Source: a virus
Lineage: Duplodnaviria; Heunggongvirae; Uroviricota; Caudoviricetes
IMG/VR virus record: IMGVR_UViG_2693429557_000009
Location: 1 to 6,714 of that record
DNA: 6,714 nt
Reading direction: 5' to 3' (one strand)
The position numbers and the translations under genes were made by a program. The notes under the pieces were generated by a model that saw nothing but the letters and a program-made list of their open reading frames with translations, was not told the DNA's origin and did no database searches. Of the stretch, positions 1,614-1,716 are shown piece after piece (the stretch's first letter is position 1; every line of letters begins with the position of its first letter).

Positions 1614-1653
1614 TTGATTTTTCCGGAATCTGTGGTAAATTCGTCATAACGAT
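1614..1653 (+). promoter_or_regulatory. Late promoter PR' with extended -10 and promoter-proximal sigma70 pause element (likely Q-utilisation region)
   Basis: TTGATT (1614-1619), 16 bp spacer, TGg-TAAATT extended -10 (1633-1641), then AACGATGGG (1648-1656), a -10-like repeat in the initial transcribed region like the lambda PR' pause inducer as I recall it; lies 3 bp after the Q stop. Confidence 0.6.
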
Positions 1654-1690
1654 GGGCGTTTTATGCCTGACGTTAGAAGAGTTTCTACAA

Positions 1691-1716
1691 CCCGCCGCCG
1701 AGCGGGTTTTTTATGA
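1691..1716 (+). terminator. Intrinsic terminator (tR'-like) about 45-70 nt downstream of the predicted PR' start
   Basis: GC-rich hairpin cccgc-cgccga-gcggg followed by TTTTTT (1707-1712). Confidence 0.6.

Follow-up and report, generated by a model that had tools for sequence, protein, structure and literature searches.

The window described here is a stretch of 6,714 nucleotides (nt) of viral DNA (IMG/VR record IMGVR_UViG_2693429557_000009, positions 1 to 6,714), and it is the late-control region of an Escherichia coli-type lambdoid prophage. Our subject is positions 1614–1716, which sit between the gene for the antiterminator Q and the first open reading frame (ORF) downstream. We are highly confident that this segment is the late-gene regulatory cassette (the promoter PR', the qut site and the terminator tR') of a lambdoid prophage with an antiterminator of the Q-lambda family. 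The late genes, including that for the holin, are on the PR' strand, 3' of tR'. Direct observation covers the sequence elements, the exact lambda register in which they stand, how they are conserved, the family to which Q belongs and, from published work, an RNA 3' end at the homologous E. coli K-12 terminator.

The cassette is a new, unannotated example of textbook Q-lambda late control; the mechanism itself is not new. Several traits distinguish it: its leader is very short, its -10 is of the extended type with a spacer of 16 nt, the spacer in the place of the Q-binding element (QBE) is a different one, the site for sigma region 4 is degenerate and the zinc ribbon of Q is doubled. Our search of the literature, which included the genome-wide study of sigma70 pausing and its supplements, found nothing on this cassette, and a comparison of pR' promoters (Viruses 2018) is without this promoter type.

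The predicted promoter and the pause element

The elements from the Q gene to the pause site are listed below; positions such as +1 are counted from A1648.

790–1611, plus strand: gene for the Q antiterminator, 273 amino acids (aa), Q-lambda family (PF03589 match)
1609–1611, plus strand: stop codon of Q (TAA)
1614–1619, plus strand: predicted -35 of PR', TTGATT, agreeing with the consensus at 4/6 positions and starting 3 nt past the Q stop
1620–1635, plus strand: spacer of 16 nt, tttccggaatctgtgg, presumed QBE
1633–1634, plus strand: TG of the extended -10, at -15/-14 (whole element TGgTAAATT, 1633–1641)
1636–1641, plus strand: -10 of PR', TAAATT, the same as the lambda PR' -10
1642–1647, plus strand: 6-nt gap, cgtcat
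1648–1656, plus strand: predicted start (A1648) and sigma70-dependent pause element, AACGATGGG
1662–1665, plus strand: pause-site motif TNYG, here TATG, at +15 to +18

The pause element consists of a -10-like AACGAT (+1 to +6) and a discriminator-like GGG (+7 to +9). In lambda (NC_001416), PR' reads TTGACT-17 nt-TAAATT-tgactc-AACGATGGG. Window and lambda have TAAATT-N6-AACGATGGG in common letter for letter: the -10, a gap of 6 nt and all nine bases of the pause element. This composite motif is found once in the window; in shuffled sequence, even with up to two mismatches allowed, it is expected to occur only 0.03 times per window. The preliminary description had reported an extended -10 promoter with a -10-like element 6 nt downstream, as in lambda; indeed, every element that it named is in place. 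The comparison proposed along with it gives a gapless alignment with lambda PR', in which the -10, the 6-nt gap and the pause element are identical; the -35 TTGATT aligns to the lambda TTGACT with an offset of one base, corresponding to the spacers of 16 nt vs. 17 nt.

Where would the polymerase pause? Lambda PR' has been described as a perfect match to T+14 N+15 Y+16 G+17 (PMC9191641). This numbering holds only if +1 is assigned to the first A of AACGAT, and we therefore adopted that assignment. In the window, as in 13 of 19 related cassettes, the first base of the TNYG motif is +15, vs. +14 in lambda. Because the motif sits one base downstream relative to lambda, the pause is predicted at +17/+18. 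A pause at +16/+17 had been expected beforehand; judged by the shifted consensus, a paused RNA 3' end at about +17/+18 is more likely.

The Q protein

The protein encoded upstream matches Pfam family PF03589 with E = 6e-55. Lambda Q itself is a PF03589 protein, and the structural literature names PF03589 the Q-lambda family (PMC9388147). Against Q-lambda in PDB 7UBM (chain Q), phmmer returned E = 1.5e-40, and the best PDB matches are the loading complexes 7UBM and 7UBN. Residues 1–113 are collinear with Q-lambda 1–113 and residues 182–273 with Q-lambda 116–207, a correspondence that takes in the N-terminal nozzle-forming segment and the C-terminal ...VTR. Relative to Q-lambda, there is an insert of ~66 aa (residues ~114–181; window 1129–1332) within the zinc-ribbon arm; it adds CxxC pairs, which give rise to a weak match to DnaJ CXXCXGXG. 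The PF06530 and PF06323 profiles did not match the window's Q. Because Q is a full-length homologue of Q-lambda, a lambda-type PR'/qut site is expected here.

The preliminary description had contrasted a long, Qin-like Q with the lambda-like promoter. The resemblance stands: the Q proteins of the K-12 prophage Qin (YdfT) and of phage SfV, 250 aa each, have the same make-up, PF03589 plus a DnaJ-like CxxC region. The contrast falls away, as this Q, YdfT and SfV Q all belong to the Q-lambda family.

Conservation of the cassette among relatives

Relatives were sought among species-representative genomes with the Q protein only; no DNA pattern was imposed. The search yielded 16 loci, with Q identities of 40–99%, from about ten enterobacterial genera (Escherichia, Atlantibacter, Scandinavium, Mangrovibacter, Kosakonia, Phytobacter, Buttiauxella, Entomohabitans and others). 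Past the Q stop, 15 of the 16 have a -35, a -10 of the form TAnnnT, exactly 6 nt, and A(A/T)(C/T)GAT(G/A)GG, the usual form of the pause element being AACGATGGGC. A G+C-rich hairpin with a T-run is likewise present at 15 of the 16 loci, giving leaders of 54–71 nt. Seventeen cassettes, that of lambda included, align gap-free from -45 to +33; within this alignment, little or no variation is seen in the pause element or at the T, A and T of the -10. The -35 TTGATT is kept in all of the relatives with a 273-aa Q.

A pattern scan of viral contigs added ~75 further cassettes of like layout, 45 of them unique and with perfect-stem terminators; because the search pattern itself dictated +1 to +10, +12, +13, +15 and +17, this set was used only for other positions. 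The same register occurs in active phages, namely mEp460_ev081, Evi, SfV and the Shiga toxin 2a (Stx2a) phage EH1910. The earlier proposal of a lambda-type PR' with a Q-loading pause element is thus upheld by the exact identity with lambda, by a register that is kept after Q homologues in many genera and by a published Term-seq 3' end at the matching terminator of the K-12 Qin cassette (PMC7815308).

The spacer falls into at least four classes, which follow the Q clade. In the window's class, TTTTTCC(G/C)GAATCTGTGG is kept with Q at 91–99% identity (273-aa proteins); TTTTCAAAAAAnnTGG occurs in cassettes with Q at 40–44% identity (250-aa proteins). The lambda QBE is placed between the -35 and the -10. 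In the lambda cassette layout, it is part of the late promoter, next to the pause element (PMC9388147). Because the spacer classes co-vary with the Q clades, the spacer at 1620–1635 is presumed to be the cognate QBE.

Within E. coli, the module 1606–1722 (117 bp) was found in 2,500 of 5,426 complete genomes (46%), mostly at 90–99% identity and in up to four copies per genome. Among the matches listed, no annotated feature lies beneath it. O157:H7 has the module with the same gene order.

The terminator and the predicted leader RNA

Transcription from PR' would first meet the following features.

1689–1712, plus strand: tR', intrinsic terminator, stem 1689–1708 (AACCCGC-cgccga-GCGGGTT) and T6 at 1707–1712
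1648–1714, plus strand: predicted Q-independent PR' leader RNA of ~65–67 nt, from the start A1648 through tR'
1649–1673, plus strand: predicted 5' leader hairpin, with pairs A2-U26, C3-G25 and G4-C24, and G7-U12 with A16-U21

In a terminator scan, the tR' stem-loop has seven pairs, five of them G-C, and a loop of six; the last two T's of the stem begin the T-run at 1707–1712. A short leader RNA of 50–70 nt, ending at tR' in the absence of Q, had been proposed, and the predicted length of ~65–67 nt agrees with this. The fold of 1648–1714 has a minimum free energy of -21.4 kcal/mol (z = -2.47); it begins with a 5' hairpin (+2 to +26), continues through a short linker rich in A and G, and closes with the terminator hairpin and a U-tail.

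Variants of the tR' stem in relatives still permit pairing (CCCGTC...GGCGGG in EH1910; CCCGC-CCCCGT-GCGGG in phage Evi), and in SfV the corresponding hairpin carries an annotation as a rho-independent terminator. The terminator is also a mosaic recombination joint: phages with an unrelated, Q21-family Q (Stx2a phages and others) match the window only from 1689 on. Phage mEp460_ev081 matches it only at 1560–1714.

The conserved bases on the 3' side of the 5' hairpin complement the invariant pause-element RNA, with 87.6% of cells paired vs. 35–44% when the partners are slid. No real covariation was evident for this hairpin in the aligned cassettes: shuffles reach the observed values in 18–402 of 500, and the 5' half is frozen. 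Because that half is fixed by its role at the DNA level, true covariation cannot arise.

Does the leader code for a small peptide? An ATG at +5 (1652) opens a 22-codon ORF (MGVLCLTLEEFLQPAAERVFYD, 1652–1720) that runs through the terminator, and its first ~8 codons are alike in relatives (MG-V/F/I-L/V-C-L-T/P-L). The ATG, however, belongs to the invariant pause element; it has no Shine-Dalgarno sequence, and the 5' untranslated region would be only 4 nt. The ORF ranges from 2 aa (lambda) to 65 aa among relatives, its stop and C-terminus are not conserved, and the differences in leader length are not multiples of three. Moreover, variability is greatest at first bases of codons (+11, +14 and +23), whereas the third positions +13 and +25 are invariant in the 45-cassette set (+13 being fixed by the search pattern), the reverse of what coding sequence shows. 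With no conserved frame or stop and with variation at first codon positions, the ORF at 1652 was rejected, and we deem a coding leader exceedingly improbable.

An RNA 3' end at the K-12 Qin cassette

In K-12, the Qin cassette follows ydfT on the minus strand, with a predicted start at 1,642,422 and the end of the U-tract at 1,642,360 (NC_000913.3, 1,642,356–1,642,422). The curated K-12 Term-seq table of Adams et al. contains an "orphan" RNA 3' end at 1,642,356 on the minus strand (PMC7815308). This position is 4 nt beyond the Qin U-tract, and the flanking sequence is exactly the Qin terminator. On two growth-condition sheets, the orphan end averages 103,591 and 55,368 reads; as a yardstick, the leuL attenuator is listed with 108,195 on the "LB OD 0.4" sheet (PMC7815308). 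The Q gene upstream in this cryptic prophage is probably repressed. The Term-seq end, which covers the 3' end of the Qin class only, fits a ~67-nt leader made constitutively in a cryptic prophage, and the orphan 3' end can be explained as that of the Qin PR' leader.

Points for and against the assignment

Several observations weigh against reading 1614–1716 as a Q-lambda-type cassette. A generic sigma70 scan did not call PR', nor did it call any promoter in 1400–2300. The core hexamers of PR' are weak (8/12). Beside the pause element, the window has TCGTCA as its -35-like element, which is only 3/6, vs. TTGACT in lambda. The presumed Q-binding spacer bears no resemblance to the lambda QBE. The zinc-ribbon arm of lambda Q contacts DNA (the QBE) and sigma region 4 (PMC9388147); because the 66-aa insertion falls in this contacting arm, the geometry and details of Q loading may differ from those of lambda. 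Finally, the experimental 3' end would apply to the window by analogy: it belongs to Qin, a relative of class B with a Q of only ~40% identity.

Some of these points carry less weight on inspection. PR' was missed because its hexamer score (4/6 plus 4/6, or 8/12) is under the cut-off of the generic scan, 9/12. A weak -35 is usually made up for by an extended -10. The miss is not counted against PR', as the extended -10 and the lambda register explain the low score; judged from its sequence, the promoter is convincing through the extended -10, the exact lambda register and phylogenetic conservation, not through hexamer strength. The -35-like element beside the pause element is TTGCCC or TTGTCC (4/6) in close relatives and TTGACG (5/6) in another class. 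In lambda, this element (TTGACT) is placed 1 bp upstream of the pause element, for the repositioned sigma region 4. Its structural role there has been described (PMC9388147), and it is a feature of lambda itself, not a proven requirement of the whole family.

The weak hexamers, the lack of a called promoter in 1400–2300 and the cryptic state of many such prophages could also be taken to mean that the motif is coincidental or decayed, with the true late promoter elsewhere and 1689–1712 merely ending the Q transcript. We consider this very improbable. Chance would provide 0.03 such motifs per window, yet the same register is found in many genera and in the four active phages named above; the scan revealed no other promoter-like site between Q and the first late gene; and an abundant orphan 3' end lies at the Qin homologue. 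Conservation and presence in active phages rule out a chance or decayed motif.

A possible second role for the leader RNA

The preliminary description had invoked Stx phages, for which short PR' leader RNAs have been proposed as regulatory small RNAs (sRNAs). This precedent is real: in Stx1 and Stx2a phages, premature termination of the PR' transcript at tR' yields StxS, an RNA of 258 nt that RNase E processes to a 74-nt sRNA, which binds Hfq (PMC7547250). It activates rpoS and represses stx1B, and such leaders have been proposed as a general source of sRNAs (PMC7547250). The window's leader, however, is not homologous to it. A blastn comparison of window 1600–1840 with the part of Sakai Sp5 that lies between the end of Q and the transfer RNA (tRNA) genes returned only a 24-nt match at 87.5% (E = 0.01), between terminator-like hairpins. 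On account of this short hairpin match and the different Q family, the leader was rejected as a StxS homologue.

A functional analogue of StxS is a separate proposition: the ~65-nt PR' leader would, beside its cis role, also be a constitutive, trans-acting, Hfq-dependent sRNA. We think this unlikely. StxS, IsrK and the lambda 6S RNA, it is true, all derive from antitermination-controlled promoters (PMC7547250), but the homology to StxS is limited to the ~24-nt hairpin, and an Rfam cmscan of the whole window (E ≤ 1) placed no family (e.g., IsrK) over 1614–1716. Conservation of the leader exceeds what the pause needs: across the 45 unique cassettes, +19 to +21 are always pyrimidines, GTT occupies +25 to +27 and +31 is invariably A, and G+25 and T+26 are at least 90% conserved in the pattern-independent alignment. 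Constraints on the late transcript, whether at the DNA level or on RNA stability, could explain this conservation just as well. The 5' hairpin, the A/G-rich (ARN-like) linker and the terminator with its U-tail would suit an sRNA, but the linker changes in sequence from one Q class to another, so that a conserved seed cannot be made out. K-12 Term-seq has many reads for the 3' end of the Qin homologue, and 46% of complete E. coli genomes carry the module; our literature search, however, found no Hfq or target data for the leader, and with the window's nine translation-start regions it pairs no better than shuffled leaders do (z of -1.2 to +1.2).

A broader form of the proposal, which we also regard as unlikely, gives the 54–71-nt leaders one of two roles: that of a widespread family of sRNAs, constitutively made and acting on the host, or that of a structured 5' cap required for the loading of Q or the stability of late mRNA. 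In sequence, they would be unrelated to StxS. Such a family would embrace the window's leader, that of cryptic Qin in K-12 and the copies that ~46% of complete E. coli genomes carry; the parts held in common would be the 5' hairpin that sequesters the pause-element RNA, the A/G-rich linker and the terminator U-tail.

Proposed mechanism

For the favored reading, a PR'–qut–tR' cassette acting in cis, we infer promoter activity with a defined start, a pause position, binding of Q to the spacer, and antitermination in this phage. The sigma70 holoenzyme would start at ~A1648 from the weak -35 and the extended -10. Sigma region 2 would then re-bind the non-template AACGAT/GGG (+1 to +9), and the complex would scrunch and pause at ~+17/+18 (TATG). 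Without Q, as in a lysogen or a cryptic prophage, escape would be slow, transcription would terminate at 1689–1712 and a leader of ~65 nt would be released. With Q, the protein would bind the spacer DNA between the -35 and the -10, engage the paused complex and build a nozzle at the RNA exit channel. The modified polymerase could pass tR' and at least four further plus-strand intrinsic terminators, and its read-through would transcribe the TrmB-like ORF, the DNA methylase, the three tRNA genes, the NanS-p-type esterase and the lysis genes.

Other features of the window

The remaining genes of the window are as follows.

419–793: RusA
1833–2030, plus strand: 65-aa TrmB-like ORF (weak TrmB/winged-helix match, E = 0.0026)
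2181–3239, plus strand: N6/N4 DNA methylase
3280–3529, plus strand: three tRNA genes, with anticodon CAT (ileZ-like) at 3280–3355, Arg-TCG at 3363–3439 and Arg-TCT at 3453–3529
4038–5891, plus strand: SASA/NanS-p-type esterase
6042–6257, plus strand: P21-type holin
6262–6576, plus strand: DUF1327 protein

The TrmB-like ORF (1833–2040 region) is kept 3' of tR' in many Stx and non-Stx phages, and a second intrinsic terminator (2017–2034, with a T-run) overlaps its stop codon. Plus-strand terminators beyond tR' include those at 2017–2034, 3544, 3785 and 5974; Q-modified polymerase must pass all of them. A sigma70-like promoter, TTGAAG-17-TATTAT (3242–3270, plus strand), stands just 5' of the three tRNA genes, and a terminator (3544–3561, plus strand) follows them. 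A separate tRNA promoter has been reported for an Stx2a phage (PMC7547250), with which the window's tRNA promoter agrees.

The sRNA family STnc100 scores strongly in Rfam between the tRNA genes and that for the esterase (3606–3815, plus strand; 148.8 bits vs. a gathering score of 47, E = 4.6e-34), and the matching segment ends in a terminator-like hairpin at 3785–3804. On the minus strand, the same interval has a strong terminator-like hairpin at 3823–3844 (eight pairs, seven of them G-C, then T7) and a weak OmrA-B-like Rfam match at 3816–3904 (25.2 bits, under threshold). A convergent small transcript in the tRNA–esterase interval is possible.

Significance

The assignment locates the late promoter, pause site and first terminator of a very common, unannotated E. 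coli prophage module. This module occupies the position of the Shiga-toxin-controlling module in related phages; the Stx2a phage EH1910 carries this type of Q and PR', and the stx site is empty here. Across the comparative set, the lambda pause geometry is kept under tight constraint, in contrast to the presumed Q-binding spacer and the arm of Q, which have diversified; the set is useful natural variation for work on Q loading. An abundant orphan Term-seq 3' end in K-12 can be identified as that of the Qin late-promoter leader. A function for the conserved leader RNA is the only reading that would raise the interest of the cassette further, and it is an improbable one.

Comparison with known systems

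One of the closest known counterparts is the lambda late cassette. The two are alike in full-length Q homology, in the -10 TAAATT, the 6-nt gap and AACGATGGG at +1 to +9, in the TNYG just downstream and in the intrinsic terminator followed by late and lysis genes. They differ in the leader, which is 194 nt in lambda vs. ~65 nt here and unrelated beyond +9, and in the spacer, which is 17 nt in lambda vs. 16 nt with a true TG extended -10 here. The spacer (QBE) sequence is unrelated as well, the TTGACT -35-like element is degenerate in the window (3/6), TNYG is shifted by +1, and the window's Q has the 66-aa insertion, a second zinc ribbon, in its arm.

The Qin (K-12 ydfT/quuQ) and SfV cassettes have the same layout of a -10, N6, AACGATGGGC, a leader of 63–65 nt and a terminator; from +1 onward, SfV is 79.5% identical to the window. 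In contrast, their Q proteins are ~40% identical to the window's, their -35/spacer class is TTGCAT-TTTTCAAAAAATATGGA-TAAGAT, with the TG one base further upstream, and their A/G-rich linker has another sequence.

StxS resembles the leader in principle, by its PR'-tR' origin, and in its neighborhood of ileZ-argN-argO tRNAs, nanS-p and lysis genes. It differs in belonging to phages with a 144-aa Q of the Q21 family (the Sakai Sp5 Q is PF06530), vs. PF03589 in the window. Compared with Sakai Sp5 (segment 2057–3390), the window at 3570–3573 goes from the third tRNA straight into post-stx2B sequence. Because the third tRNA adjoins that sequence, the window represents the stx-free counterpart of an Stx2 phage late region.

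The cassettes of the Q21 and Q82 families comprise a Q gene, PR', a sigma-dependent promoter-proximal pause and a terminator (PMC9388147). Those of phages 21, 933W and 82 are unrelated to the window's cassette in Q family, QBE layout and pause position; they nevertheless follow the same functional logic, and they recombine with it at the shared terminator.

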